IMG/VR virus record: IMGVR_UViG_3300021092_000008
Strand: one strand, 5' to 3'
From: a virus
Length of the DNA stretch: 64,000 nucleotides
This document shows positions 1-16,716 of the stretch, piece after piece. Numbering within the stretch: the first letter of the stretch is position 1; every line of letters starts with the position of its first letter. The position numbers and the translations under genes are program-made. The notes under the pieces are model-generated. The model saw nothing but the letters and a program-made list of their open reading frames with translations. It was not told the origin of the DNA and ran no database searches.

Positions 1-13
1 AATCGGTCACAAA

Positions 14-3000
14 ATGTTCGGGCAAAAAAGTGCCATTCTTAACATTAAAGAACATACTGGTGACGTTGCTAAATTAAATGCTTTAATTACAGCAGGAACT
101 AATATTGTTGGGCAACAAACGTCGTGTTCAGCAACTTTAACGTCTATTATTTCTGCTACTCCTGCTCCTGATTATGTGTGGGAAGCTGAGCAAGAATATT
201 TAGTTGGGGATATTGTAAGAGTAAGCAATTCAATTTATAAAGTAACCACCTCAGGAAGTAGTGGAACTATTGCTTATAGTGGTGTATTAGCTACACCAAA
301 AAATGCTGTAAACGGATCATCTGCATATATCTATTTGGGTGATAGAAGAGAAGCATCTTTAAATATTACAGTAAATGATAATTCTCCATCACAGTCTTTT
401 GCTGATGATGAAGTTATTTCATACGTAATAAATTCTGTTACTTATCTAGCTAACGTAGCATTATTTAAATCAACTAGAGCAGAAGGTGAAGTTGTAAAAT
501 ATGGCGAGACAGAATTAAGAGAATACATTGTAGAAGAAATTGATGCTAGTAAATGGTCTACTCACCCAACGCCAGGTGATAATGGTCAATTAACTCCTGG
601 TAGTGGTGGTATAATTTTTAAATTTGCTGGTCTTCATGAATTTAAAGAATTCGATATTGTTTTTATATCAAAACCAAATAATGCCCCAGTTGCTTTAAAT
701 TCATTCTTTGGTTTTCAAAGAGTTGATCAAGTTTTATATGATGCTGACGGTTTTTCTAGAAGAATTGTCGTTAAGAAACAAATTCAACCAAGTTACACCT
801 CAGTATATTTACCACCAATTGGACAGTGTAAAGCAAAAGCAAAAACAAAGTATGTCGAGATTTCGCTATTAAACTCTCCATATGGATTTACTGATTCTAC
901 ATTTACATCATATAGATTTATAGATGCTGTAACATTTATTAGAAATAATAGAGATTTTATCGCTGAAGAAATTACTGGAGCAATTAGTTCTCGTTATCCA
1001 GATTTTGTCTATCCTGGTACAAATGCTAGTAGATTAAGATTTAAAGATGCTAGAAATTTAATCTACAAAAATTTAGATTTTATTGCCGATGAAGCTATTG
1101 GATGGTTGTGGAATGAATCAAACTTTGCTACTTGGGGAGCAGCAAACTTAGCATTAAAAAGTAAATGCCGTAGAGATGTCAAGATCTTTTTAAGAGGTCT
1201 GGCAAATGATTTATATGACGGATCAAATAAGAGTACAATTGTTGTAACCAGATCTTATTTTAATGCCATTACTGGAGTGCCAATTCCTAATGGTCTTGTT
1301 GGTGTTGAACCTCAATCTATTGCTGTTTTCACCAAAGCTGCTGAATATGCAAAATTAGCTGTTAACAATTCATTGCCTATAACTCCAACTTATTCGCCGT
1401 TAAAAGCATATAGAGATCTTTCAATAACTCATGATCCAACAACATACTTAACTGTTGGGGAAAATAATTGTGCTAACGTTAAAACCGCTATTACTACTTT
1501 AACAACCATTTTAACTAGTGCTATTAGTGCTGGCAATTTGACTGGATTACCACCAGTTAGTTCTGACGATGGTGCTTCAGATGGAGAAAATCTTTGTAAG
1601 AGAGATCTTAAACATATTTTAAATGCTGTTATTGCCGATCTCCCATATGGTGGCAACGCTACTTCAATCGAAGCGGCAAAATCATATAGAAATAATTCTA
1701 CTCAATCAGTTGAATATATTGATAACCAGCATAGACAATCTCGTTTTGCTTTCCAATTAGCAAGAGATTATGCTATTCTTGCCATGAGAAATTGGCAAAC
1801 AAAAATTAGTCTGAAGTTTAAAAAAGATAGTGATATTGTTGAAGTTGTTTCAGCAGCAGGAACAATTGGTCTTGTTCCCAAAATGAGATTATATTCTTAT
1901 AATAATCTAGAACAACAAGTAGAAACAGATTACTTCATTAAAGAAGTTGTATCTCCAACTCAAATAAGAATCTGGAAATTTAATACAGGTCTTTCTGGAG
2001 CAGATCACACTTTTGCTGATGGTGAAATAACAGGCTTTAAAACAAGAAATATTAATTTAAAACTTAGTGAAGGTGAAACATCATTTACACCAATTTGGAC
2101 AGATGATTTAGTTCCAAGAACTACCAACTATCCAGAATTTCCAGAATGTACTAACGTTGCTGTTACATTAACAAACTTATTTACTTTAATTGATGATATT
2201 GTAGTAAACAATACGGATGATCGTTACTTTGACGCTACAAATCAGATAGAATTTAATAAAGATTTTATTGCTGAGGAAGTTAATGGTTGGTTAAAAGAGA
2301 CATATGATGGATTTGCTTATCCATTACCAACTTTTACCAAAACAGTTATTGATACTTCAAACGCTGATGCTTATCCATCTTTTATTCAAATAACTAATAC
2401 TGCAAAAGTAAAGGTAGGGCAATTAGTAACTAGCGGTGACGCTATTCAAGATAATACATACATTACTTCTATTGATGTAGAAAATAAAATTTTATATCTA
2501 AGTAAATCATTAGAAAGTGAGATGGATAGTGTTACTATTCATCCTGATGTATATCTTGATGAGTCGATGAGATATAAGGACGCTTCTAACCTTATTCTCA
2601 AAAACAAAAACGAAATTACTGACAAAGCACTTGCTCAGATTGCTGTAGAATTTCCAGACTTCGTTTTCCCTGGAAATTCAGTTACTGACGAATTCAGTAG
2701 ATTTGCTGATGGATACCGTTTAATTACTCAAAATATCAAAGAAATTGTTGATCGTTCTTCAGCAGAAGTTGCTGTACAACATCCAGATTTTTATTTCCCT
2801 GCCGATGCTCAAACTACAAAGAGATCAAGATTTAAAGATGCTTATCGATTAATCCAATTAAACAAACAGGAAATTATTGATACTGCTTATGCTACTATGG
2901 AAGCAAATGGTCTTCCATCCCCAGCTCCAACTGATCTAGAATCTAAGTGTAAGCGTGACATTGGTTTGTTAGTTGATTACGTATCACTTGATGTATTTGT

Positions 3001-6000
3001 TGGTGGCAACACCTATGCCAGAAAGTTTGTTCTAACATATTTCAATGGCAACACATTTATTCCAGATGGTTTGGAAGGAGAAGTTCCTCAGTCAATAACA
3101 GCATTCAATGCTGCTAGAGATTTGATGAAGCAAGCTATTGCTAATCAATTAACAGTTAAAGATTTAACCATCACTCCTGGTGCTGCTACTTATGGTGGAG
3201 GTGGTGGAAACATTCCAAATGATAATGTTGGCGCTTGTGCTGATGTTCAATCTGCTATCACATCATTAGTTGCTGTTGTAACTGACGTACTAACATCATT
3301 AAACATCAATAATCTAGTAAAAGAAAATGATGGCAACAATAACCGTTACGAAGATTCGGCGGATTTAATTTATAATAACAAGCAAGAAATTATTGATCGT
3401 GCTGCTGCTCAGATTGCTGTGGAGTATCCAGATTTCTATTATCCTGGCGATCCTCAAACTACATCTTCTTCAAGATTTAGAGATTCGTATCGTTTAATTC
3501 AGCAGAATAGGCAGCAAATTATTGACCGTGCTGCTGCTGAAATTGCTATACAATTCCCAGATTTCTATTATCCTGGAGATGCTCAAACAACTCCTACATC
3601 TAGATTTAAAGATGCTTATCGTTTAATTCAATTAAATCGAGATGAAATTATAGCAAATGCTTATGCTGCTATTTTAATATTCAATCCAGAATTTGTAAAT
3701 CCAAATCCACAAAAATGCCAGAGAGATATTGGTATTTTCGTCGATGCTTTATCTTTGGATATTTCTAATGGTGGTGGTAATACATATACTCGTAAATTTG
3801 TACTACAATATTTTAATAATGGTATTCCTATTTCCAATGGTCTTCTAGGAGAAGAAGCGGAATCAAATGTTGCTTTTAATAAAGCAAGAGACGAGATGAA
3901 TAGGGCTGTTGCTAACCAGTTAACAGTTAAAGATCTTACTATTACCGCAGATCCAACACCTGGATCTGGAACTGTATCGAATACAAATCCCGACTCCTGT
4001 GCTAACGTTCAAGCAGCTATTACTAGCTTAGCACTTATTGTCACAGATAGAATTACTGCTGGTAATATAATTGGTTTACCATCTGAAACAACAGGAACGA
4101 TTCCTGCTGGGGAAGCAAAGTGTAAGAGAGATTTAGCATACTTTGTTGATTCTGTATCTCTAGATTTAACTTTAAAATCAAACAAATATTCACGTAAATT
4201 TGTACTACAATATTTTAATAATGGTATTCCTATTTCCAATGGTCTTGTAGACGAAACAGCTCAATCTGTAGTTGCTTTTAACATGGCTCGTGACATGATG
4301 AAGAATGCGATTACTAACCAGTTGTTCGCTAAAGATCTTACAATTACTCCAGACCCAGCACCTGGATCTGGAGCTGTATCAAATACAAATCCTAACTCCT
4401 GTACTAACGTAAGATCTACTATTGATACTTTATCTTCATTGATTACAGCAAGAATTACCGCAGGTAATTTAACTGGTCTTCCAGCAGAAGTAGAACCAGT
4501 TACACTCAAGGGAGAAACAAAGTGTAAGAGAGATATTGGGCAATTTGTTATTGCTATTGAAGCTGATTTACGTCAATTAACCGATTTCAATACGAGAACA
4601 TTCTTATCACGTTATTTCACTCCCGATGGTTCTTCTTGGATTAGTAATGGATTACAAAATGAGGAAGCACAATCTGTAGTTGCTTTTAACAAAGCAAGAG
4701 ATGTAATTAATCAAGCGATCACCAATCAACTTTATTACAAAGACCTCACAATTACAGCAGATCCTGTAACAGGAAGCAATGCCAATCCTTCTTCGTGTGC
4801 TGATGTTCAAACAGCAATTACAACTCTAACGACACTTGTAACAACCAGAATTACTGCTGGAAACTTAGGAACAACCAAAAGTTCTTTCCTTGCTGCTGCT
4901 ACTTACGATGTTTTAGTTGGAGAAATTAAGTGTAAGCGTGATGTTAAGAAGTTTGTAGAAGCAGTTTCTTTAGATGTATTTACTAAAGGTAACAAATATT
5001 CAAGAGAATTTGTAAATCAATATTTCACAAATGTTTCAAGTCCTCTTTCAAATGGATTAGTAAACGAAGAAACTCAATCTATCACAGCATTCAACATGGC
5101 TCGTGATATGATGAGGAAAGCAGTAACTAATCAATTAACAATTAAGGATTTAACTATTACTGCAGGACCAGCCCAATATAACGGAAGTGGTGGCAATATC
5201 CCAAATCTGCCTTCAGGAACTGCTGCAGCATGTGTTGATGTTCAAGCAGGAATCGCATCGTTAAGTAAGATTATTACTGATGTCATTACTGCTGGATCTT
5301 TAACTGGATTAGATGCTTTCCCAGAAACACAAGGAGTGTTTGGAATTGGTGAAACAAAATGTCGTAGAGACATTGGTATCATTGTTGATGCTGTAGCAAA
5401 AGACGTTGCTGACGGTAGTAACTGGAGATCAGTAACTGCTGCTAGATCTTATTTCCAAGAAGGGCAACCAATTTCAAATGGTCTGGTTGATGAAGAAGCA
5501 GCATCTATTTTTGCTTTTAATAAAGCAAGAGATCTCATGATTCTTGCCATAAGAAACCAATTGAACTATCGTGATTTATCAATTACTGCTGATCCAGAAA
5601 GATTAACAAACTTTGATAAATTTGTCTGCTCTGATGTTGCTTCAGGAATTACTACTTTAGTTTCTATTATTACTACAACTATTAATGATGGTGATTTAGA
5701 TTCTTTATCTGGAATAACTGTAAATAGAGGAACATATTCATTTAACGAAATTAAGTGTAAGAGAGATATTAAGCTTCTTATTGATGCTGTCATTAATGAT
5801 ATAACTTTAAATGATAGCAACGCAAATAGTATTAACTATGCCAATTTATACAAGGAGCAAAACGGTAACATCAAATTAATCGATAATCAACTAATTCAAT
5901 CTGTTGCCGCTTTCAGAAAAGCAAGAGATCTATGTATCCTTGCTATGAGAAATTGGATTGAATTCCCAGGAAAACAATATTATCAGAAGGAGTATACAGA

Positions 6001-9000
6001 TCTTGATTATGTAAGAGATGAGTTCTTAATTATTGATACTGAAACTCCTTATTGCCAGAATGTTGCCACTGCTATTACAAATAGATTTGATTTAATCATT
6101 AATATTTTAACTGGTGATGCTGAAAATTCAAATCTAGATACAGCTAATCAAATTGCTATTAATGAAAACTTTATTATTAACGAAGCATTAGCATCAGGAG
6201 AAGTTTCTTTCCCTGGTGTTTCAATTCCAAACATTACTAAATGTAAGAGAGATTTAAGAATTATCCTTCGCTCCGTACAACGTGATATAATTCTTGGTGG
6301 TACTGTTGGTATTGTTCGTTCAGCAGATTCTTATTTAACTGGAGCAACTTTAGATGTAGGTTTTGTTGGCGATCAATTAGGTAAGACTTTACACATTTAC
6401 GATTATGCCAAGCATATGGCAATTGCTGCCACAAGAAATTGGAATTTTGAAATTAGAGACTGTACGACAGTAAGCGGAAATAATGTAGTAACAGTTCCTA
6501 ACACAAATGGCGTTGTTCTTGGAATGAGAGTATCTGCTAATGAGTTTAGATACACTGATCTTACCCCAGATTCATATGCTTATGTAATTGGAATTAATAG
6601 AGGAAGCAATACAATAACTTTAGGTAACTCTAAGTCATTGACAGCTGCTGCTTTCCCAGCAAATGCTTCAACAACAACAGCAAAACTATTCTTCTCATTT
6701 AGTGAAGTAGGTGCTCCATGGTTTGATGCTGCTAATAACATCACTGCTAATAAGACATTTATTAAGCAGGAAGCAGTTGGATACATTGAAAATATCTATC
6801 CATATCTAACCACACTTAATCCTTCAACTTCATTAGCTAATCTTGTTTCTCAGTATGATAATGCTACATGCCAAAGAGATATTGGTTATGTATTAGATGC
6901 TCTCATTTTTGATTTAAGATATGGCGGCAACTCAGAAACTATTAAAGCTGCCGAATTATATAGAAATGCTTCTGGTCACCTTGACTATATTGGTAATCAA
7001 CTAGTTCAAAGTATAGAAACTTTTGAAAAGGTAAAAGATCTAGCAGTCCTTGCTATGAGAAATTGGAAGACTAGTGCTACTACAACGTATACTAAACAAT
7101 TTGCCACAGCAGATTATGTCGTAAACAATGATATATTACCAGATCCTGCTGGATATCCACAGTGTGCTTTCGTGGAAGCATCAATAGAATCTTTATTCCA
7201 GCAGTTTGTTGACATCATCACAAATGATTCTGGAGGAACTAAAATTGATGCTGCTAGACTTATTGCTAGAAACTTTAAATATATCGCTGAGGAAGCAGTA
7301 GGTGCTGCTAACGAGGAGTATCCTCTTGTAACAATTCCAAATGAAGCAAAATGTTTGAGAGACACTCAATTAATTATGACCGCTTGGATTAAAGATTTAA
7401 TTACTGGAGGCAACTCTGCTACAATTCAAGCAACTCAATCTTATTTAACAAATACTGGCGCTGTTACTTTTATTCAGGATGAACTACAAAAGAGTAGATA
7501 TGCTTATGAGTACGCTAAAAATCTAGTTAAATTAGCAGTTACAAATAATTTACCTGATCCAGGAGAATATACAGACGAAGATCCATTTACTGATTTATCT
7601 ATTCTCCCAGATCCTCTTACTAATGACAATACAGATCCAACGTCATGTGCTTCAGTACAAAGCACCATAGAAACTTTATGGAGTATTCTTGATAGTACTT
7701 TAGCTCAATCTGGAGCTCCATTACCAGCAGCTACTTATGGCACTCAATACAATCCTCGTAAATACTTCCCAGCAAACTTCCCTGGTATTTTTGCTGGTGA
7801 TTATTTCCAAGGTTTACAAAGAGCGTCTACGGATGAATTCATTACAGAAGACACATCCTATCCAGAATGTGCCAATATTATTACTACATTAATTAATCTA
7901 TTTGCCATCTTAGATGCTGTGCTAAATGGTGGAGATTTACCAGAGGCTACTAATGATAACGTTGCTTTAGTTGTTAGAAATCGAGGAACTCTTTACAACC
8001 CAACAATTGTACAAGGTTCTGGTACAATGATTGATGCTGGTAACAGACCAGTAATTCGTGGTAGAATGATTAATGCCAATGACATTATTGAAACTTCTCC
8101 ATATATTCAAAACTGTTCGATTATTTCATTCTTAGGTGGTGGTGGTTGTGAAGTTGATGGTTCTAAGATTAAACAAATTAACGTTCCTCGTCCAGGTTTG
8201 AAAGAAGATGGATCATCAAAGCTTGCCCCACAAGGTAAATCGATGGTTGCTAACGCCTTCACTATTATTTCACAGGGAGGCACTGGATACTTAGTTAAGA
8301 ATGATGGTTACACTCAGTTGGTATCTGTATTCTGTATCTTCTGCCAAGATGGTATTCTTGCCGAATCTGGTGGATATGCTTCTGTTACCAACTCTGCTTC
8401 AAACTTTGGTACATATGCTCTACGTGCTACTGGATATAGAGAAGAACCATATGTATTTGATATTGCTACCATTAGCGAAATTGGTGTTACGGGCGCTGGT
8501 AAAACAATATTCCGTGTAGATGGATTAGGAAGAAGACCACAAGAAAACTTTGTTGTTAAAATTGATGGATATGAAAATGTCGTATCAGACATTGAATTTT
8601 TTATAACTGTAGTATCTCAAACAACAGTTGGTGGAACTGGAGAAGTTAGTTCTAGAATTGAGTTAAATGATGCTCTTTTAATAAAAAATAAAGAATCTGG
8701 TCAGATAGTCAATCTCAACACTTCAGAATTAATTAATAAAACAATTAGATTATTCAGACCATCTATCATTAACTCTTCTGGTCATTCGTTTGAATATATT
8801 GGTTCTGGTATTAATTACTATGCTCTACCAGAAAATGGTGGACAGAAGATTGAAGATAACGAGCAAGTATCACAAAGTTACGGTAGAGTATATGCTTCTG
8901 GTACTGATGAGGCAGGTGACTTCAAGGTAGGTCGTACCGTGAAGATGGAAAACAGAACTGGTAACATTTACTTTACTGGTCAAGTATCTATCTCGGAAAT

Positions 9001-12000
9001 TGAATTCTTACGTATTCGTGGTGGTGATCTTGTTGTTACTGGATTTGATGCTTCGCCAACATTAGGTGGTGCTGCTGCTACAAACCAAAAACTACCAACA
9101 CAGAAAGCTGTTAGAGACTTTGTAACTAATAACCTAGGTCCATATTTTGGTAAACCATATTCAACAAATCCAGTTCCAAATGCTCTTGTAGAACTAGGAA
9201 ATGATGGTAAGATTAATCTAGATCAAATTCCACCTATCAGACCATTTAAAGTTTATACAGTAGAAAACACTTCCCAAAGACTTGCTTTAGAAGGATTAAA
9301 TTCTGGTGATATTGCTGTACAAGTTACAAGATTGAATGATACTATCAGTGCTTCTGATGTTGATGTAGCAAATAATAAAATCTTTACTCCTAAAACTGGA
9401 TTCTCTAGCGGTCAAATTCTTTCAATTGTATCAAGTCCAGTTAACCCAATTCAAACAACTGATGGTCCTATAGTTGCTGGAGAGTCTTATTATCTTATTG
9501 TTCTTCCAAATAATTTTGTTCAGTTAGCAGCATCTCCAGAAAATGTTATTGACGAAATTCCTATAACAATTACTGACGCTGGATCTGGCAATACAGAAGT
9601 TCAAATCGCTACTGGTACAGTTTCATATATTTTAAATAATGATGTAGATACTCAATTTTTAGCTTATCCTCCAAATATATCCACAACATTTACAACTGGA
9701 TCATTAGTTATTGGTTCGGCAACAGGTGCTATTGGTTCAGTAACTAGTACTTTATATGGTACTGTATTCTCAATTTCAGTTTCTGGCGGTGGTAATGTTT
9801 ATTTAAATGAAACTCCATCTGTAGTTATCTCTGCTCCGAATCAAGGTGATGGTGTTCAAGCAACAGCAACTCCTGTTGTTGTTGGTAGTAGAATTTCGGC
9901 AGTTGAAATTACCAATAAAGGAAGTGGATATGATACCACACCAACTGTATCTATTTCTATAGGAGAAGTTGCTTGGTCAGCAAATCAAACATATCTTGTC
10001 GATGATTTAATTTTTGTTGGAACAAATCTTTATAAAGTAACAACAGAGGGAACTTCAGGAACATCTGCTTTCTCTGGTCAATCTGGCATTCCTCAACCAG
10101 CAGATGGTGGTACATGTTTCTATGTTTACGTCGGGGAAAGAGCTCAATTAACATCTTTTGTTGAAAGTAGAGTTTCTATTAATATTGAAAATTCTGTTAA
10201 ATTTACTGATGTTGACAATATTAATAGTCATAATGCTACTCCTGTCACAGTAAACATATCTAGAGTTGTTAATACATCAGGATCAAATGAATTTAACTGG
10301 GTTCCACTGACATCAGCTTCTATTGATGCTGCTTCTATTACTACTGGTACTATTTCTACTTCTAGATTAGCATTACCTAATACTGGTTCAGCAAACTCGT
10401 TTACATTCTTAAGGGGCGATCAATCATTTAAACCAGTTGTACAAGGTGTTAAATTACCAGAATCTAAATTCTTAGTAAAAACTGTTCTATTCTCACCTGG
10501 AAGTGGTGATCCTTTAATCCCGCCAGTAAACTACATCACTATTCCATTAACGAGTTTAATACAAACTGGACAGAGAGTTATTGGTAATGGTGTGTCAGCA
10601 GATACAATTGTTCTTGAAATATTAACTGTTGGTGGTAATACTAGAGTTGTATTAAGTTCTACGCTAATTAATGATGTCCCTGTTGGTACAGTATTTACCA
10701 TTATAAGAACAGAAACTGCATTACAATTTGATTCTAACTTTACCAAAGGAGCATATGCTGCTGGCATCTTTATAGAAAGTCCAGGTAACTATTACACTTC
10801 AACTATTACCAATGGTAATATAGGAGAAAATACAATTAGCGTAGTTGACGTTACCAAAGCTGTTATTGGGCAAAAGGTAACTGCTGAGGGAGTTGCTACC
10901 AATGCTATTATCACCAGCATTCAGCTTGATAGTGGAACTTCGGGAACAATTACTTTATCAGCAAATAATACTGCTAATATAGTAAACAAAGAAGTTCAGT
11001 TTGGAGTTCCATTCTCAACTGGTACGTTCAATAACGTAGAACTATTCGGTTCAAATACAGGTTCTGGTGCTAAAGCAACATTTACTGTTCAAAATGGTTT
11101 AATTACTAATGCCCTTATAACTGATGGTGGTAATGGATATACAGAAGATTTTGATATCGATCCCATTCCAGGTGCTTTAGGATTAGGAACTGGCGCTAAA
11201 CTTACTGTTCTTGCTTCAACTCAGCAAACATACTTCTCTAGCATCGAAATGGATGTCAAGAGAGTTACAAATCAAACAACATCATTAGATCCTTTTGGTA
11301 CAGTTGGTGTTGCTAGATTCCAGAAATCACAATATACATATGGTCCTGATGGAGCAGTTACTTTAAAAACTGGTCCAGAATCAGGATTAGATTCTGACTT
11401 ACTTGATGGTAAGCAAGGTGTATTCTATCTTGATGCTTCAAACTTAGAATCTGGCACTCTAAGACCAGATAGATTATCTGGTACATATTCAATTGATATT
11501 ACTGGCAAATCTGGTACTACAACTAGAGTAGAAACTATAACAGATTCCATCAACGCTGTACCAGCTCCTTCTGCTTACGGATCAGGTTTAAGTTTGGCAG
11601 CAAGAATATCTTCTAATTTTAGATCTTCTCTAGTTGATAGAACCTTAGAAGATGAAGGAGAGCGTGTAACATTACTGACTATTAGACCATCTGGTATTGG
11701 TACAGATGCTAGTAATGGTGGTTTAAAACAGTTAGCATTTACTGATGGTACTCTTAACGTTGGTACAGGTGGTGGTGGTGCTAGTTCTTCTACAACTCTT
11801 GATGATGTTGTTCCAAATATGTACATTCGTGGTACAGGAAACATTATCCCAACTGATCCAACAAACGCTTTCTCACCTTGGTATAAGGTATGGACTTCTG
11901 GTAATGATGGATTTGGATCTGGATTAGATGCTGATAAACTACAAGCAAAAGATGCCAAGTTCTATACAAATGCTCTAAACCTTGATGGTGGCAGCATCAA

Positions 12001-15000
12001 TGATTCCAGATTACAACCAATAATGTCTTCTAAGAAATTCTTAGAATCATTAACTACTGTTAGATATATTGACAAAGCACACTATGAAATTTATTTCTCT
12101 GGAAGATTAAATAACGGAGATCTTAACTTCGTAATTGGCACCACTTACTCATTATACAATGATATTCTCCAAGTAGTTGGTCAAGCAACATTAAAGCTGA
12201 TAGAGCAAAAATTCCCTGTAGAAGAGGTTAAAACAGAACTTAATTACGTAATTCTTACAATTCAATTAGATAGTGGTTCTATTGGTTCTGCTACAAAAAT
12301 TGGATTTACTGGTTTTGAACAAACATGGAATTCACTAAGACTTTCGCCATTTGCCACCTATACTTCTTCTACATTACAAGATGATGGTACTGGAGCTAGA
12401 TTAATCTTAGGAAGAAATGATGGTAACAATGTTGCCAACAACACTCCTTCTAGTGGTGCTATCATTGATTTCCATTCAAGCGGAGCATTCAATGAATATG
12501 ATGTAAGATTCCAAGTCACTGGGGGTACTACTAATAGTGGTAATGGTGCTTTAAATATTACTGGTAATGGATTTACTTATAACAGCAATACTGTCTGGCA
12601 CTCTGGAAATGACACTGATATTTCAGGTCTGAATGCCAACTTCTTACAAGGTATTACAAAATCTCAGGTAATGAGATCTGATGAGAATACAGCAACGGCT
12701 GGATCATTAACCGTAACTGGAGTTACAACATTATCAAGTTTCGTAACTATTAATGACGCTGCTCAATTAGCAGATAACACAATTATTGATCCTGATATTT
12801 ATTCTAACAAAGTTATTGCTGGTAATTTAGCAGATGGTGGAGGATTCTCTGTTATTGGTATTGGCGGTAATGCTGGAGTAGGTAAATCTTGGGCAATAGG
12901 TCATAATGGAACTTCATTGTACTTTGGTATTGGCGATGGAAGTGCTGCTGATACATTAACAACATGGGCACAAGTAGATGCCGACAGAACAATTAGATTC
13001 TTTGCTAAAAATAATAGCTCAATATTCTTCAGTTCTGGTACTAATGATTATAGAATTTGGAATGAAAATAATGATGGTTCTGGTTCTGGTTTAGATGCCG
13101 ATCTCTTAGATGATAGAGATTGGAACTCTAGAGATAAATCAATTCTCAGAACTTCTGGATCTCATATTGCTGGTGGTTTATACATTAATGATGGCACTAA
13201 ATATCAAACTTCAAACTTTGGTTTCTTAATTAGGCATTCTGATGCCAATGGTGTAAGTGCTGGTGCTGGTGGTAGACTAGATTTTGTATTTGGAGACGAT
13301 GCTTCTAAAGCAGCAGATCAAACTGTATCAACTCTTCGTACATTCTCATTTGATAAATCTGGTCAATTAATTCTTCCAGCGCCTACAGGTACTTCTCCAT
13401 TATCTGTAACTTCTACGACTAAAGTAACAAATTTAAATGTTGATTTACTAGATGATCAGGATGGTAGTTATTATACAAACGTCAACAATGCTAATGCTGG
13501 TACTTTAGCTGCTGTTAGAGGTGGTACAGGAATCAATGCTTATGCTATTGGTGATATGTTGTATGCTTCAGCAACAACCCCAACACTAGCAAAATTAAAT
13601 ATTGGTACTACCAACCAAATTCTTACAGTAAATTCTGACGCCACTGCTCCTAAATGGACCTCACCATCAGCGATTAATATTGGATCAGCAACTAAAATTG
13701 CTGTTACATCAGATGCTGCTACATCAACTAATTTGGTGGTTGGATTCTTCTCATCTACAGAAACCCCAGCAGATATTAAATATAGCTCAGACTCTTCACT
13801 TGGATTATTCTTTAATCCATCTGTAGGAAGATTAACAGCTAAAACATTCAATGGAGCTTTAAGTGGAAATGCTACAAGTGCTACTAACGTTTCTGCTGGT
13901 GGTGCTGCTGGATCTCTACTTTATCAATCAGGAACAAATACAACAACAGTTTTAGGAATTGGTACTTCTGGTCAGGTATTGGTAGTAGGTGGGTCTTCGG
14001 CTCCTATTTGGACAGCACAAATTAACATTACTGCTGGTAATATTAATGGTGGAGTTCGAGGGCAAGTATTATATCAATCTGGCGTTGGAGCAACAGCAAA
14101 ATTACCTGTAGGTGCTGCTGGATCTTTACTCCAGACTAATGGAACTAATCAAAATCCTTCATGGGTGGCACAAAATACAATCACTGCTGGCAACATACAT
14201 GCTGGTGTTGCTGGCGATCTCTTATATCAATCTGCTGCCTCAACAACTTCTAAGTTAACCATTGGATCTGCTGGTCAGGTATTGGTAGTAAATACCAATG
14301 CTACGGCTCCTTCTTGGACAGCACAAAGCAATATTACTGCTGGTAATATTGCTAGCGTTGATGGTGATACTGGATCTTTACTATATCAATCTGCCGTAAA
14401 TGTTACGTCCAAGTTCTCACAAGGAACAGCTGGTCAAGTATTAAGTTCACAAGGAACTGGAGCAGCTCCTCTTTGGATCAACCAATCTTCTATTACTGCT
14501 GGTAACATACATGCTGGTGTACGTGGCGATCTCTTATATCAATCTAACGTTGGAACAACTGTTAAATTAAATATTGGATCTGCTGGTCAGGTATTGGTAG
14601 TAAATGCTGGTGCTACGGCTCCTTCTTGGGTAGCACAAAATACAATCACTGCTGGTAATGTGGATGGTGGAGCTATTGGTGAAGTTCTATATCAATCTGC
14701 TGCTGGAGCAACAGCTAAATTGCCAGTATCAAATTCTGGATTTATTTTATCAACTCAAGGAGCAAATAACCCACCTGCTTGGATTAATCCAAATACAATT
14801 ACTGCTGGTAATATTAGTGGTGGTGCTGCTGGAGAAATTCTATATCAATCTGGTACTGGAGCAACAGCAAAACTTCCTGTGGCAGCAGCATCTGCTGGAC
14901 AAGTTCTTGCTCTAAGTTCCTCCAAATTACCAGTTTATATTAATCAATCTTCAATTGTTGCTGGCAACATTACCAGCATCGCCGCCGATACCAATAAAAT

Positions 15001-15967
15001 TTTGTATCAGTCTGCCGTTAATACTACATCTAAATTACCAACAGGCGAGGCTGGTCAAATATTAAGGTCTGGTGGAAGCCTTGCTGTTCCTGGTTGGGTT
15101 GCCCAATCAACTCTTACTGTTGGAGCTGCTGCTAACGTATCAGGTGGTGGTGCTGGACAAATACATTACCAAAGCGGTCCTGGAGCAACGGCATTCTTAG
15201 CGGCAGGACAGAATACACAGGTTCTGATTGGTGGAGCAGCGGCGCCTGCTTGGTCTAATATTTCTGGTCTTTCTGTTGCCTCTGCTGCAAATATTACTGC
15301 TGGTGTTGCTGGCGATCTCTTATATCAATCTGCTGCCTCAACAACTGTTAAATTAAACATTGGATCTGCTGGTCAGGTATTAGTTGTTAACACTGGCGCT
15401 AGTGCCCCAACGTGGGTTAACCCATCAACATTAACCGTAGGTAATGCTACCACAGCAGTCAATACCACTGCTGGTATGCCTAATAATACTGACACTGTTT
15501 TAAATGCTCGTATTATTAGAAACAACAATAGCACCAGCGCCAATGACGGTATGTATATTGGTTATGGTAATACTAATAGTGGTCTTACTAGATTGTATGG
15601 CGGTGGTTCTACTTCAAATAGGTTAGAAATCAATTCCGCAGGTAATGTTACTGTAACTGGTACAGTAACAGCAAGTTCTGATATCAGACTTAAGAAAAAT
15701 ATCAAAACAATTGAAAATGCTTTAGATAAAGTTCTAAATCTTAGAGGTGTAGAATTTGATCGAATTGATATTGATACTCACCAGATTGGTTTAATTGCTC
15801 AAGAGGTTGAGGAAGTTATTCCAGAAGTTATATTTGAAAATGAAGATGGCATGAAGACTGTTGCTTATGCTAATATGGTATCAGTCCTCATTGAGGCAAT
15901 CAAAGAACAACAAATTCAAATAAATATGCTACAAGAGGAAATTAAATCTCTCAAAGACAAACCATAA
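14..15967 (+). CDS. Giant tail-fibre-like virion protein, probably 5'-truncated: CBM-like modules, 12 phycobiliprotein-like helical domains, beta-helix segment, fibre repeats, C-terminal peptidase S74-type intramolecular chaperone
   Basis: 5317 aa ORF; the frame is also open from base 2 (atc ggt cac aaa), so the true start may lie upstream. C-terminal SDIRLKKNIKTIENALDKVLNLRGV...GLIAQEVEEVIPE is the autocleaving chaperone signature of tail fibres; several LDADLLDG-type fibre motifs; SPYIQNC beta-helix segment near 8095-8440. Confidence 0.85.
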   Translation: MFGQKSAILNIKEHTGDVAKLNALITAGTNIVGQQTSCSATLTSIISATPAPDYVWEAEQEYLVGDIVRVSNSIYKVTTSGSSGTIAYSGVLATPKNAVNGSSAYIYLGDRREASLNITVNDNSPSQSFADDEVISYVINSVTYLANVALFKSTRAEGEVVKYGETELREYIVEEIDASKWSTHPTPGDNGQLTPGSGGIIFKFAGLHEFKEFDIVFISKPNNAPVALNSFFGFQRVDQVLYDADGFSRRIVVKKQIQPSYTSVYLPPIGQCKAKAKTKYVEISLLNSPYGFTDSTFTSYRFIDAVTFIRNNRDFIAEEITGAISSRYPDFVYPGTNASRLRFKDARNLIYKNLDFIADEAIGWLWNESNFATWGAANLALKSKCRRDVKIFLRGLANDLYDGSNKSTIVVTRSYFNAITGVPIPNGLVGVEPQSIAVFTKAAEYAKLAVNNSLPITPTYSPLKAYRDLSITHDPTTYLTVGENNCANVKTAITTLTTILTSAISAGNLTGLPPVSSDDGASDGENLCKRDLKHILNAVIADLPYGGNATSIEAAKSYRNNSTQSVEYIDNQHRQSRFAFQLARDYAILAMRNWQTKISLKFKKDSDIVEVVSAAGTIGLVPKMRLYSYNNLEQQVETDYFIKEVVSPTQIRIWKFNTGLSGADHTFADGEITGFKTRNINLKLSEGETSFTPIWTDDLVPRTTNYPEFPECTNVAVTLTNLFTLIDDIVVNNTDDRYFDATNQIEFNKDFIAEEVNGWLKETYDGFAYPLPTFTKTVIDTSNADAYPSFIQITNTAKVKVGQLVTSGDAIQDNTYITSIDVENKILYLSKSLESEMDSVTIHPDVYLDESMRYKDASNLILKNKNEITDKALAQIAVEFPDFVFPGNSVTDEFSRFADGYRLITQNIKEIVDRSSAEVAVQHPDFYFPADAQTTKRSRFKDAYRLIQLNKQEIIDTAYATMEANGLPSPAPTDLESKCKRDIGLLVDYVSLDVFVGGNTYARKFVLTYFNGNTFIPDGLEGEVPQSITAFNAARDLMKQAIANQLTVKDLTITPGAATYGGGGGNIPNDNVGACADVQSAITSLVAVVTDVLTSLNINNLVKENDGNNNRYEDSADLIYNNKQEIIDRAAAQIAVEYPDFYYPGDPQTTSSSRFRDSYRLIQQNRQQIIDRAAAEIAIQFPDFYYPGDAQTTPTSRFKDAYRLIQLNRDEIIANAYAAILIFNPEFVNPNPQKCQRDIGIFVDALSLDISNGGGNTYTRKFVLQYFNNGIPISNGLLGEEAESNVAFNKARDEMNRAVANQLTVKDLTITADPTPGSGTVSNTNPDSCANVQAAITSLALIVTDRITAGNIIGLPSETTGTIPAGEAKCKRDLAYFVDSVSLDLTLKSNKYSRKFVLQYFNNGIPISNGLVDETAQSVVAFNMARDMMKNAITNQLFAKDLTITPDPAPGSGAVSNTNPNSCTNVRSTIDTLSSLITARITAGNLTGLPAEVEPVTLKGETKCKRDIGQFVIAIEADLRQLTDFNTRTFLSRYFTPDGSSWISNGLQNEEAQSVVAFNKARDVINQAITNQLYYKDLTITADPVTGSNANPSSCADVQTAITTLTTLVTTRITAGNLGTTKSSFLAAATYDVLVGEIKCKRDVKKFVEAVSLDVFTKGNKYSREFVNQYFTNVSSPLSNGLVNEETQSITAFNMARDMMRKAVTNQLTIKDLTITAGPAQYNGSGGNIPNLPSGTAAACVDVQAGIASLSKIITDVITAGSLTGLDAFPETQGVFGIGETKCRRDIGIIVDAVAKDVADGSNWRSVTAARSYFQEGQPISNGLVDEEAASIFAFNKARDLMILAIRNQLNYRDLSITADPERLTNFDKFVCSDVASGITTLVSIITTTINDGDLDSLSGITVNRGTYSFNEIKCKRDIKLLIDAVINDITLNDSNANSINYANLYKEQNGNIKLIDNQLIQSVAAFRKARDLCILAMRNWIEFPGKQYYQKEYTDLDYVRDEFLIIDTETPYCQNVATAITNRFDLIINILTGDAENSNLDTANQIAINENFIINEALASGEVSFPGVSIPNITKCKRDLRIILRSVQRDIILGGTVGIVRSADSYLTGATLDVGFVGDQLGKTLHIYDYAKHMAIAATRNWNFEIRDCTTVSGNNVVTVPNTNGVVLGMRVSANEFRYTDLTPDSYAYVIGINRGSNTITLGNSKSLTAAAFPANASTTTAKLFFSFSEVGAPWFDAANNITANKTFIKQEAVGYIENIYPYLTTLNPSTSLANLVSQYDNATCQRDIGYVLDALIFDLRYGGNSETIKAAELYRNASGHLDYIGNQLVQSIETFEKVKDLAVLAMRNWKTSATTTYTKQFATADYVVNNDILPDPAGYPQCAFVEASIESLFQQFVDIITNDSGGTKIDAARLIARNFKYIAEEAVGAANEEYPLVTIPNEAKCLRDTQLIMTAWIKDLITGGNSATIQATQSYLTNTGAVTFIQDELQKSRYAYEYAKNLVKLAVTNNLPDPGEYTDEDPFTDLSILPDPLTNDNTDPTSCASVQSTIETLWSILDSTLAQSGAPLPAATYGTQYNPRKYFPANFPGIFAGDYFQGLQRASTDEFITEDTSYPECANIITTLINLFAILDAVLNGGDLPEATNDNVALVVRNRGTLYNPTIVQGSGTMIDAGNRPVIRGRMINANDIIETSPYIQNCSIISFLGGGGCEVDGSKIKQINVPRPGLKEDGSSKLAPQGKSMVANAFTIISQGGTGYLVKNDGYTQLVSVFCIFCQDGILAESGGYASVTNSASNFGTYALRATGYREEPYVFDIATISEIGVTGAGKTIFRVDGLGRRPQENFVVKIDGYENVVSDIEFFITVVSQTTVGGTGEVSSRIELNDALLIKNKESGQIVNLNTSELINKTIRLFRPSIINSSGHSFEYIGSGINYYALPENGGQKIEDNEQVSQSYGRVYASGTDEAGDFKVGRTVKMENRTGNIYFTGQVSISEIEFLRIRGGDLVVTGFDASPTLGGAAATNQKLPTQKAVRDFVTNNLGPYFGKPYSTNPVPNALVELGNDGKINLDQIPPIRPFKVYTVENTSQRLALEGLNSGDIAVQVTRLNDTISASDVDVANNKIFTPKTGFSSGQILSIVSSPVNPIQTTDGPIVAGESYYLIVLPNNFVQLAASPENVIDEIPITITDAGSGNTEVQIATGTVSYILNNDVDTQFLAYPPNISTTFTTGSLVIGSATGAIGSVTSTLYGTVFSISVSGGGNVYLNETPSVVISAPNQGDGVQATATPVVVGSRISAVEITNKGSGYDTTPTVSISIGEVAWSANQTYLVDDLIFVGTNLYKVTTEGTSGTSAFSGQSGIPQPADGGTCFYVYVGERAQLTSFVESRVSINIENSVKFTDVDNINSHNATPVTVNISRVVNTSGSNEFNWVPLTSASIDAASITTGTISTSRLALPNTGSANSFTFLRGDQSFKPVVQGVKLPESKFLVKTVLFSPGSGDPLIPPVNYITIPLTSLIQTGQRVIGNGVSADTIVLEILTVGGNTRVVLSSTLINDVPVGTVFTIIRTETALQFDSNFTKGAYAAGIFIESPGNYYTSTITNGNIGENTISVVDVTKAVIGQKVTAEGVATNAIITSIQLDSGTSGTITLSANNTANIVNKEVQFGVPFSTGTFNNVELFGSNTGSGAKATFTVQNGLITNALITDGGNGYTEDFDIDPIPGALGLGTGAKLTVLASTQQTYFSSIEMDVKRVTNQTTSLDPFGTVGVARFQKSQYTYGPDGAVTLKTGPESGLDSDLLDGKQGVFYLDASNLESGTLRPDRLSGTYSIDITGKSGTTTRVETITDSINAVPAPSAYGSGLSLAARISSNFRSSLVDRTLEDEGERVTLLTIRPSGIGTDASNGGLKQLAFTDGTLNVGTGGGGASSSTTLDDVVPNMYIRGTGNIIPTDPTNAFSPWYKVWTSGNDGFGSGLDADKLQAKDAKFYTNALNLDGGSINDSRLQPIMSSKKFLESLTTVRYIDKAHYEIYFSGRLNNGDLNFVIGTTYSLYNDILQVVGQATLKLIEQKFPVEEVKTELNYVILTIQLDSGSIGSATKIGFTGFEQTWNSLRLSPFATYTSSTLQDDGTGARLILGRNDGNNVANNTPSSGAIIDFHSSGAFNEYDVRFQVTGGTTNSGNGALNITGNGFTYNSNTVWHSGNDTDISGLNANFLQGITKSQVMRSDENTATAGSLTVTGVTTLSSFVTINDAAQLADNTIIDPDIYSNKVIAGNLADGGGFSVIGIGGNAGVGKSWAIGHNGTSLYFGIGDGSAADTLTTWAQVDADRTIRFFAKNNSSIFFSSGTNDYRIWNENNDGSGSGLDADLLDDRDWNSRDKSILRTSGSHIAGGLYINDGTKYQTSNFGFLIRHSDANGVSAGAGGRLDFVFGDDASKAADQTVSTLRTFSFDKSGQLILPAPTGTSPLSVTSTTKVTNLNVDLLDDQDGSYYTNVNNANAGTLAAVRGGTGINAYAIGDMLYASATTPTLAKLNIGTTNQILTVNSDATAPKWTSPSAINIGSATKIAVTSDAATSTNLVVGFFSSTETPADIKYSSDSSLGLFFNPSVGRLTAKTFNGALSGNATSATNVSAGGAAGSLLYQSGTNTTTVLGIGTSGQVLVVGGSSAPIWTAQINITAGNINGGVRGQVLYQSGVGATAKLPVGAAGSLLQTNGTNQNPSWVAQNTITAGNIHAGVAGDLLYQSAASTTSKLTIGSAGQVLVVNTNATAPSWTAQSNITAGNIASVDGDTGSLLYQSAVNVTSKFSQGTAGQVLSSQGTGAAPLWINQSSITAGNIHAGVRGDLLYQSNVGTTVKLNIGSAGQVLVVNAGATAPSWVAQNTITAGNVDGGAIGEVLYQSAAGATAKLPVSNSGFILSTQGANNPPAWINPNTITAGNISGGAAGEILYQSGTGATAKLPVAAASAGQVLALSSSKLPVYINQSSIVAGNITSIAADTNKILYQSAVNTTSKLPTGEAGQILRSGGSLAVPGWVAQSTLTVGAAANVSGGGAGQIHYQSGPGATAFLAAGQNTQVLIGGAAAPAWSNISGLSVASAANITAGVAGDLLYQSAASTTVKLNIGSAGQVLVVNTGASAPTWVNPSTLTVGNATTAVNTTAGMPNNTDTVLNARIIRNNNSTSANDGMYIGYGNTNSGLTRLYGGGSTSNRLEINSAGNVTVTGTVTASSDIRLKKNIKTIENALDKVLNLRGVEFDRIDIDTHQIGLIAQEVEEVIPEVIFENEDGMKTVAYANMVSVLIEAIKEQQIQINMLQEEIKSLKDKP
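911..7930 (+). repeat. Array of 12 helical protein domains (RF.DA..LI..N / KCxRD / C..V...I..L)
   Basis: C-x-R-D cysteine codons at 1166, 1595, 2948, 3716, 4121, 4523, 4931, 5360, 5756, 6242, 6869 and 7352; 12 matching N-terminal motifs and 12 second-Cys motifs counted in the translation. Confidence 0.9.
13545..15440 (+). repeat. About 11 copies of a ~51 aa fibre repeat (ITAGNI.GG..G.LLYQS...T.KL..G..GQVL....P.W)
   Basis: Ten YQS-containing units spaced about 150-160 nt apart plus one divergent upstream copy (GDMLYAS). Confidence 0.9.
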
Positions 15968-15970: not shown

Positions 15971-16018
15971 ATTATGTTACAATATCCTTCGTACAGTATT
16001 ATTAAAGAGGAACTTATT

Positions 16019-16231
16019 ATGTCTACTGACACTACCGCTCTTAGAGAAAATTTTGAGAATCAACTCAAAAATATTAATGAGCAAATTACCAAACTTGAAG
16101 AAGATCTATCAAAAGCAAGAGAGTATAGAACCAAACTACAAGGGGGTCTAGAAACTCTCCAAATTTTAGATCCTAAGGAAGAAGTTTCAGCAGAAGAAAC
16201 TCCCGTTTCCGAAACTGAAGTTGTAGAATGA
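16019..16231 (+). CDS. Small coiled-coil hypothetical protein (possible fibre chaperone)
   Basis: ATG at 16019 with AAAGAGG RBS is preferred over the track start at 15974; heptad pattern LKNINEQITKLEEDLSKA and acidic tail. Confidence 0.75.
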   Translation: MSTDTTALRENFENQLKNINEQITKLEEDLSKAREYRTKLQGGLETLQILDPKEEVSAEETPVSETEVVE

Positions 16232-16238
16232 TTAAACC

Positions 16239-16259
16239 ACCCCCTTCGGGGGGTTTTTT
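16239..16259 (+). terminator. Intrinsic terminator
   Basis: ACCCCC-TTCG-GGGGGT followed by a T run. Confidence 0.85.
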
Positions 16260-16272
16260 ATTGTGAGGTGAT

Positions 16273-16716
16273 ATGAAATTTGAATCTATTATAGGGCAAT
16301 ATTTAAATAAAAAACAAGCGTTTTCTTATCCATCACAATTCGCAATGATCCGTATTGTGTATAAAGATTTGGGCGATAATAAATTGATGTCTCAAAATTG
16401 GTATGAGTATCAATATCCTAGGGGTAGACCTTATAGACAAGAGTATCATAAGTATGAATATATTACAGAAAAAGAAGTAATATTTCAATCATATAATATG
16501 GATTGGGAATTGAATTGTAATTATCAATTTAATTATGTGAACGGATTTTGGATTGCCATGCCTTGTGGGGAATGTATCGTAAAAGGAATTAGAATTAACA
16601 GTGAGGTTAAATTTAATGATTCTCAGTACATAGCAAAAGATACTGGTTATGATGCTGACGGTAGATTAGTTTTTGGCAAGTCTACTGGCGGACCCTTCAT
16701 TTTTGATAGGGTATAA
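16273..16716 (+). CDS. cpeT: T-type phycobiliprotein (bilin) lyase, phage CpeT/CpcT-like
   Basis: N-K-K-Q-A-F..P..F, PYRQ and DTGYD..G..VFG....PFIFDR motifs typical of CpcT/CpeT; compact 147 aa form like cyanophage homologues; GAGGTG RBS. Confidence 0.85.
   Translation: MKFESIIGQYLNKKQAFSYPSQFAMIRIVYKDLGDNKLMSQNWYEYQYPRGRPYRQEYHKYEYITEKEVIFQSYNMDWELNCNYQFNYVNGFWIAMPCGECIVKGIRINSEVKFNDSQYIAKDTGYDADGRLVFGKSTGGPFIFDRV

Follow-up and report, generated by a model that had tools for sequence, protein, structure and literature searches.

The window analysed here, a stretch of 64,000 nucleotides that forms the last part of virus record IMGVR_UViG_3300021092_000008 (156.6 kb, 81% complete), opens inside a giant tail-fibre gene. 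The virus is an S-PM2-like cyanomyovirus, a T4-like cyanophage, and its capsid protein shares 88% identity with the counterpart in a 196,280-bp phage record. With its start 1,148 nt (383 codons) ahead of the window, the fibre gene has a full product of 5,704 amino acids (aa); residue numbers below are counted from the Met at window nt 14. By sequence parsing and structural modelling, the gene encodes an array of 12 phycobiliprotein beta-like globins, nested in one another's B–E loops up to six levels deep with one fork, and probably in a G–H loop as well. Each unit consists of an N-part (N, numbered by its Asp), a part beginning with a CxRD motif (C) and a last helix bearing a Cys (H). The array is laid out as follows:

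2..15967, plus strand: giant tail-fibre gene, orthologue of S-PM2 p091 (phrog_5342, tail fiber protein)
911..2215, plus strand: block 1, unit N304+C528+H712, whose B–E loop hosts unit N345-C385-H486; depth 2
1802..2083, plus strand: non-globin insert of ~95 aa in the G–H loop of unit 304, beta-rich by look
2219..6125, plus strand: block 2, seven units in six levels with one fork, from the parse, orthologues and mirror test
2324..2566, plus strand: non-globin insert of ~80 aa in the B–E loop of unit 740, ahead of unit 856, from the parse
3335..4879, plus strand: three-level nest modelled in its native sequence (model residues 85–241 for the inner domain, 1–511 for the outer)
6128..7940, plus strand: block 3, unit N2042+C2077+H2619, whose G–H loop probably hosts a beta-domain and units 2238 and 2412
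6443..6715, plus strand: beta-rich insert of ~90 aa in the G–H loop of unit 2042, with strands in a low-confidence model

The first-pass annotation had described a balanced-bracket arrangement of N-parts, CxRD motifs and terminal Cys helices, 12 of each, and all are present in the order it gave. The Asp anchors of the N-parts lie at residues 304, 345, 740, 856, 899, 942, 1114, 1157, 1200, 2042, 2238 and 2412, the CxRD motifs at 385, 528, 979, 1235, 1370, 1504, 1640, 1783, 1915, 2077, 2286 and 2447, and the last-helix cysteines at 486, 712, 1075, 1329, 1463, 1595, 1740, 1872, 2014, 2384, 2545 and 2619. The exact closure that had been claimed is borne out by a stack parse, which leaves no remainder and reaches its maximum depth of six at N1200–C1235, and a hidden Markov model (HMM) scan found the identical 12/12/12 string. 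Spacings are regular: 41–43 aa from N to N, which leaves space for helices A and B only in the stacked N-parts, 35–48 aa from N to C in unsplit units, and 41–45 aa from H to C. In block 2, unit 740/1915 hosts 856/1783, which hosts 899/1640; the fork lies in 899/1640, which hosts both 942/979 and 1114/1504, and the latter hosts 1157/1370, itself the host of 1200/1235. By the parse, units 899 and 2042 host two inserts each; the topology is branched, as had been suggested, and the antenna-like shape proposed with it is putative. The RNW motifs are found at nt 1781, 5942, 6428 and 7052; their proposed role as a mark of outermost units did not hold strictly, as nested unit 2238 carries one too. The RNW/PxC association (20/22 vs 11/141) comes mostly from close orthologues. 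A plain tandem array is excluded by the parse and the nested structural model. An assembly artefact was likewise rejected: the N-part copies share only 44–71% DNA identity, and three other Joint Genome Institute (JGI) assemblies have a 5,704-aa gene call in this position.

Repeated insertion into the loop before CxRD, up to six levels deep, is the claim on which structural model, orthologues, mirror tests and the grammar of the wider family agree. When the native three-level segment was predicted with AlphaFold, it came out nested (predicted local distance difference test, pLDDT, 85.5; predicted template modelling score, pTM, 0.86), with one complete and contiguous inner domain and an outer domain assembled from both ends of the chain. 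Four whole globins (2vry_A, 4uii_B, 2d2m_D and 3pt7_B) align over model residues 1 to ~511 with 109–141 residue pairs, at Z scores of only 5.5–7.2, and these alignments unite N1114 with C1504 and H1595; for 2vry_A on the outer domain, 141 residues align with a root-mean-square deviation (rmsd) of 3.7. All three levels find a counterpart in an S-CAM1 protein whose structure was predicted separately (TM 0.91, rmsd 1.7). Nesting depth also varies among orthologues in the manner expected of brackets: whether a protein has 11, 12 or 13 units, its N-parts always match its C-parts in number and the outer pairs persist, and in the 11-unit orthologues the entire difference falls inside the 1114/1504 bracket.

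The pairing was further assessed by a mirror test, in which the similarities among N-parts are compared with those among C-parts. Bracket pairing scored 0.64 (p 1.5e-4) in the window protein, against 0.20 for first-in-first-out pairing, and in 38 other clusters the values were 0.64 and 0.40, with a null of 0.17 ± 0.06. First-in-first-out pairing was rejected, being lower in both tests and shifting the orthologous partners at each gain of a level. Among 44 other clusters, defined at the 50% identity level, with a last helix and stacked N-parts and with depths of 2 to 10, 38 are balanced, whereas a random order would give 7.6. Of the six unbalanced clusters, two or more look like fragments. A 2,927-aa relative (P0003) has ten stacked N-parts in a balanced string, and hence ten levels. 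A sister family (P0005, P0006 and P0011; L057–L062) has its units, which are shorter and retain CxRD, in linear tandem, as many as 34 to an array, and no match to the last-helix Cys segment was found in it; stacked N-parts occur in 2/93 of its members, vs 45/57 in the last-helix family.

Insertion had also been proposed for the loop before the last helix. Here counting, spacing and motif class fit the proposal (C2077 with H2619), while the similarity test gave no preference, all six C-to-H pairings in block 3 scoring alike (0.52–0.56). C2286 and H2384 lie 98 aa apart, as in a unit that has not been split, and the G–H loop is probably also used for insertion, judging by the sequence. A fold of block 3 (window 6119–7951, from an alignment of 4 sequences) reached a pLDDT of 39.8, too low to be of use, and the 2042/2077 core modelled together with the 2619 helix scored 0.28 against a mark of 0.32; the latter was counted neither way.

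Each unit is a globin domain of the phycobiliprotein beta type, with helices A to H and no helices X–Y, an identity that the first-pass annotation did not give. It is matched by Pfam PF00502 (Phycobilisome; E 3.9e-25), and a profile of 59 unsplit units gave 93 PDB sequence matches, all 60 of those listed being of phycobiliprotein type. The inner domain of the model aligns with beta subunits from beta residue 31 on (136 of 176 residues, Z 17.6, rmsd 2.0), and nearly all of the 50 structural matches listed are beta chains; ApcE reaches Z 14.4, and globins outside the phycobiliproteins reach Z 11 at most. When the three-domain model was compared with the PDB by Foldseek, no E value fell below 0.001, and phycobiliproteins ranked top with a probability of 1.0. 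The N-part corresponds to helices A and B, and its Asp aligns with beta Asp39. The CxRD motif, kept in 12/12 units, is the beta82/84 site and aligns with beta Cys82. The last-helix Cys and helix-A Asp, both also kept in 12/12, align with beta Cys153 and Asp39; the beta155 register is taken from the alignment to 6jpr_B, which matches only weakly around Cys153, and from the structural chain range to 176. The insertion points are therefore named as the B–E loop, before CxRD, and the G–H loop, before the last helix. Nesting had been offered as the reason why local searches miss most copies, and this applies only in part: Pfam misses them mainly through divergence, since even unsplit units score E 0.02–0.06 or give no match. 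The family profile, unlike Pfam, detects every unit.

CpcB and CpeB beta subunits share with the phage units the A-to-H globin, Cys82/84 within CxRD, Cys153/155 and Asp39. The phage units differ in that the X–Y helices, which serve alpha/beta pairing, are absent (they begin at beta residue 31–34), as is the methylated-Asn72 loop, where the profile alignment has an eight-residue gap. They are therefore phycobiliprotein-like domains and not phycobilisome subunits. Identity to true phycobiliproteins is 13–19%, no alpha partner was found in the 81%-complete record, where PF00502 matches only the two giant genes, and the 12 phage copies are fused and nested within a phage structural protein. The bilin domain of ApcE (LCM), with its PB loop, has the same fold (4xxi_A, Z 14.4). 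ApcE carries an insert between helices B and E, the same loop as is used in the phage units. Its single insert is non-globin and it has no beta155 site, whereas the phage insert is a copy of the host domain itself, recursively. Bilin-binding globins (BBAGs and photoglobins) are likewise found outside light harvesting, some with CXRD, but they are single cellular domains encoded next to bilin synthesis genes and bind without a lyase (PMC10151467); the phage units resemble beta subunits (Z 16–17) more than photocobilins (Z 11).

Beyond the array, the fibre gene ends in a chaperone domain and is followed by two small genes:

15677..15829, plus strand: Peptidase_S74 intramolecular chaperone (E 1.7e-15)
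15974..16231, plus strand: 85-aa open reading frame (ORF), PHROG match to phrog_580
16273..16716, plus strand: CpeT/CpcT-type bilin lyase gene, 147 aa (phrog_488, E 9e-32; matches to 4o4o CpcT and 5hi8)

The C-terminal Peptidase_S74 and the tail-module position mark the giant protein as a chaperone-bearing tail fibre; T4 neck genes come after it, by PHROG matches and in other assemblies. Peptidase_S74 chaperones are typical of trimeric fibres and spikes.

The cpeT gene starts 305 bp downstream of the fibre gene. Its product has the PYR and Asp motifs of the T-type lyase family PF06206 and matches the sequences of cyanophage CpeT (PDB 5hi8) and CpcT (4o4o), differing from them in that the window lyase adjoins a phage-encoded candidate substrate. 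Cellular T-type lyases (CpcT) attach bilin at Cys-beta155 (PMC2327270), and CXRD is the usual bilin motif (PMC10151467). A second cpeT (G000:C1:2222-2674, outside the window), 46% identical to the window copy, precedes another giant gene (G000:C1:3677-14659, also outside the window; 3,660 aa) by 1 kb. This second giant gene has five phycobiliprotein-like units, of which three are nested; both domain genes of the genome thus have a cpeT within ~1 kb. In ~19 fetched loci, cpeT lies directly upstream of domain-bearing genes. After the phrog_580 ORF the sequence itself shows a GC-rich hairpin with a T-run near 16239–16259 (region 16232–16273); it stops just ahead of cpeT, and because of it the lyase may be made by read-through. 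No psbA was found in the 81%-complete record.

The pigment-related residues are widely retained among relatives: CxRD is kept in 213/267, the helix-A Asp in 192/199 HMM-selected N-parts and the CxRD Asp in 199/204. Giant-gene units of S-SKS1, P-HM2 and Syn9 (L162, L163 and L164) mostly have C.DD in place of CxRD and keep the last-helix Cys and helix-A Asp. If selection acts on the beta155 site, frequent loss of the CxRD Arg with retention of the beta155 Cys and Asp is the pattern to be expected. In a panel of 16 cultured cyanophages, which were not selected for the trait, eight have domains and cpeT, seven have neither and one has domains only (agreement 15/16, Fisher p 0.0014). Both features are present in the light-dependent adsorbers P-HM1, P-HM2 and S-PM2, and P-SSM2 and P-SSP7, which adsorb in the dark, have neither (PMC6628666 for adsorption).

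The fold, the site residues, the nesting in the B–E loop and the adjoining lyase gene are established by computation. The start of helix A and the end of helix H lie close together, which allows one domain to be housed whole in another's surface loop; in this topology the chain runs outward to the tips and returns, giving arms made of stacked globins. The best overall reading, to which we give a probability of about 0.6, is that the gene encodes a bilin-loaded, branched virion fibre. Late in infection the phage T-type lyase would join bilin made by the host to the Cys of beta155 type, and the Cys of beta84 type could acquire bilin spontaneously or through a host S-type lyase, for up to 24 sites per chain, or 72 in a trimer. 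Nesting would vary the number of sites without moving the fibre anchor or tip; a new level would arise through matched changes at its two flanks, with the loss of any unbalanced products. That the domains are real biliproteins, loaded by the phage CpeT from the host pool, is predicted with the same confidence as the overall reading. What the pigment would do is much less certain. The leading guess, although an unlikely one, is that it lets the particle respond to light by gating host attachment, with photoprotection of the particle ranked second. It is similarly doubtful that many T4-like cyanophage particles are biliproteins with nested arms, pigmented by their own CpeT, sensing light and attaching only to illuminated hosts.

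Several points weigh against this reading. Bilins in phycobiliproteins are usually photo-inert. The window CpeT has Met in place of the AHIR His of CpcT and 5hi8, and neither CpeS, ho1 nor a bilin reductase (pcyA/pebS) was found in the 81%-complete record. The 3,340-aa fibre of S-PM2, a true orthologue, is encoded far from the S-PM2 cpeT, and in S-SKS1 a domain with the last-helix Cys occurs where no cpeT was found. The identity to phycobiliproteins given above is low, AlphaFold models have common training biases, and sequence comparison of the pairing order of the six inner units of block 2 places the bracket order at rank 49 of 2,880. Annotation and gene position are the only indications that the array protein is in the virion. 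The co-occurrence of domains and cpeT among the 16 cultured cyanophages is suggestive only, as related phages share states and the result is clade-confounded; one of the negatives is a podovirus. Finally, P-SSM2, which lacks the domains, adsorbs less in the dark (PMC6628666).

In one rival explanation the fibre is nested but colourless, a captured phycobiliprotein fold serving as a rigid block or adhesion module, with structural cysteines (for example in interdomain or interchain disulfides) and a cpeT acting on host phycoerythrin. Fibres often recruit host folds, the CxRD Arg is lost in some relatives, and the missing bilin synthesis genes fit as well; so does the literature, which assigns phage cpeT to host antenna assembly (PMC13041748, PMC10452541). 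The role of phage cpeT has also been called unresolved, the gene occurring in 12/16 cyanomyoviruses without its usual operon partners (PMC3037559). A colourless fibre would leave unexplained the joint retention of the helix-A Asp, the CxRD Asp and both cysteines, as well as the cpeT genes adjoining both giant genes and the co-occurrence of lyase and domains. Moreover, the two cysteines of a beta subunit are too distant for an intradomain bond. We regard this explanation as unlikely. Somewhat more credible, while still tentative, is that the fibre is pigmented and the light dependence of attachment lies on the host side, the bilins screening or quenching light for the particle or acting as a sink that drains the host antenna. 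All the pigment evidence applies equally to this explanation, and it accommodates the partial light effect in P-SSM2. Light-dependent adsorption has been ascribed to unnamed light-sensitive host receptors or to tail fibres as equal candidates (PMC6628666). Against it, the three light-dependent phages have domains and lyase and the two dark-adsorbing phages lack both, in a very small sample.

The nest itself could be misread if the halves paired crosswise or were swapped between the chains of a trimer, so that the bracket rule fitted the sequence and not the fold. The inner six-unit pairing is not fixed by sequence, the C–H pairings of block 3 are indistinguishable, and the models are of single chains only, all of which would suit such an arrangement. 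It is nevertheless improbable: in the model N1200 stays paired with C1235, as does N1114 with C1504, the first-in-first-out order fails with orthologues and in both mirror tests, and the spacing from C2286 to H2384 is that of an unsplit unit.

Recursive self-insertion to this depth has a precedent in Si3, an insertion in RpoC2 of the cyanobacterial RNA polymerase, in which one domain family is inserted in itself six levels deep, with forks, and which was singled out in a 2026 domain-insertion survey (PMC13114784). As in Si3, a domain is found repeatedly in a loop of its own paralogue, here the B–E loop. The Si3 units are sandwich-barrel hybrid motifs in an enzyme, with 8–10 domains in the representatives quoted, whereas the phage units are helical globins in a fibre gene, with depths of 2 to 10 among relatives; the six-level nest of the window equals the depth of Si3, and relatives reach ten. 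Depth changes among close orthologues, and the family therefore shows the growth of recursive insertion. Six-level self-nesting and bilin-binding globins outside antennae are thus already known, and the fibre would be categorically new only if pigment were shown. A literature search on phycobiliprotein-like domains or nesting in phage structural proteins found no description, with subscription journals outside its coverage.

A pigment-bearing virion would be new, if true, and its light-gated version would amount to a virion photoreceptor. The substrate of phage cpeT, and the reason why some cyanophages adsorb only in light, become testable in the cultured phages S-PM2, P-HM1 and P-HM2. If real, a monomeric globin with two bilin sites that accepts large inserts in two of its loops would moreover have value as a scaffold.

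The domain array was matched in 347 phage records, 346 of them cyanophages and one an unannotated marine virus. S-PM2 p091 and the Kyanoviridae 'short tail fiber' proteins (phrog_5342, phrog_4527) are orthologous over their full length and have at least five nested units; they are annotated merely as tail or structural proteins, and the window copy carries 12 units. In one relative (L017:8962-18383) the fibre gene lies in two frames of 641 and 2,514 aa, with the break after the first nested pair, which may be a sequencing error or a genuine split. The segments flanking the whole array (window 7990–8600, and ~300 codons into the full gene) match segments of the second giant protein that are only ~170 aa apart, and on this sequence evidence the whole array may have been inserted within a single domain of the fibre protein. 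Towards its distal end (window 13900–15500), ahead of the S74 chaperone, the fibre has ~15 tandem repeats of ~38 aa with a GxLLYQS-like motif.

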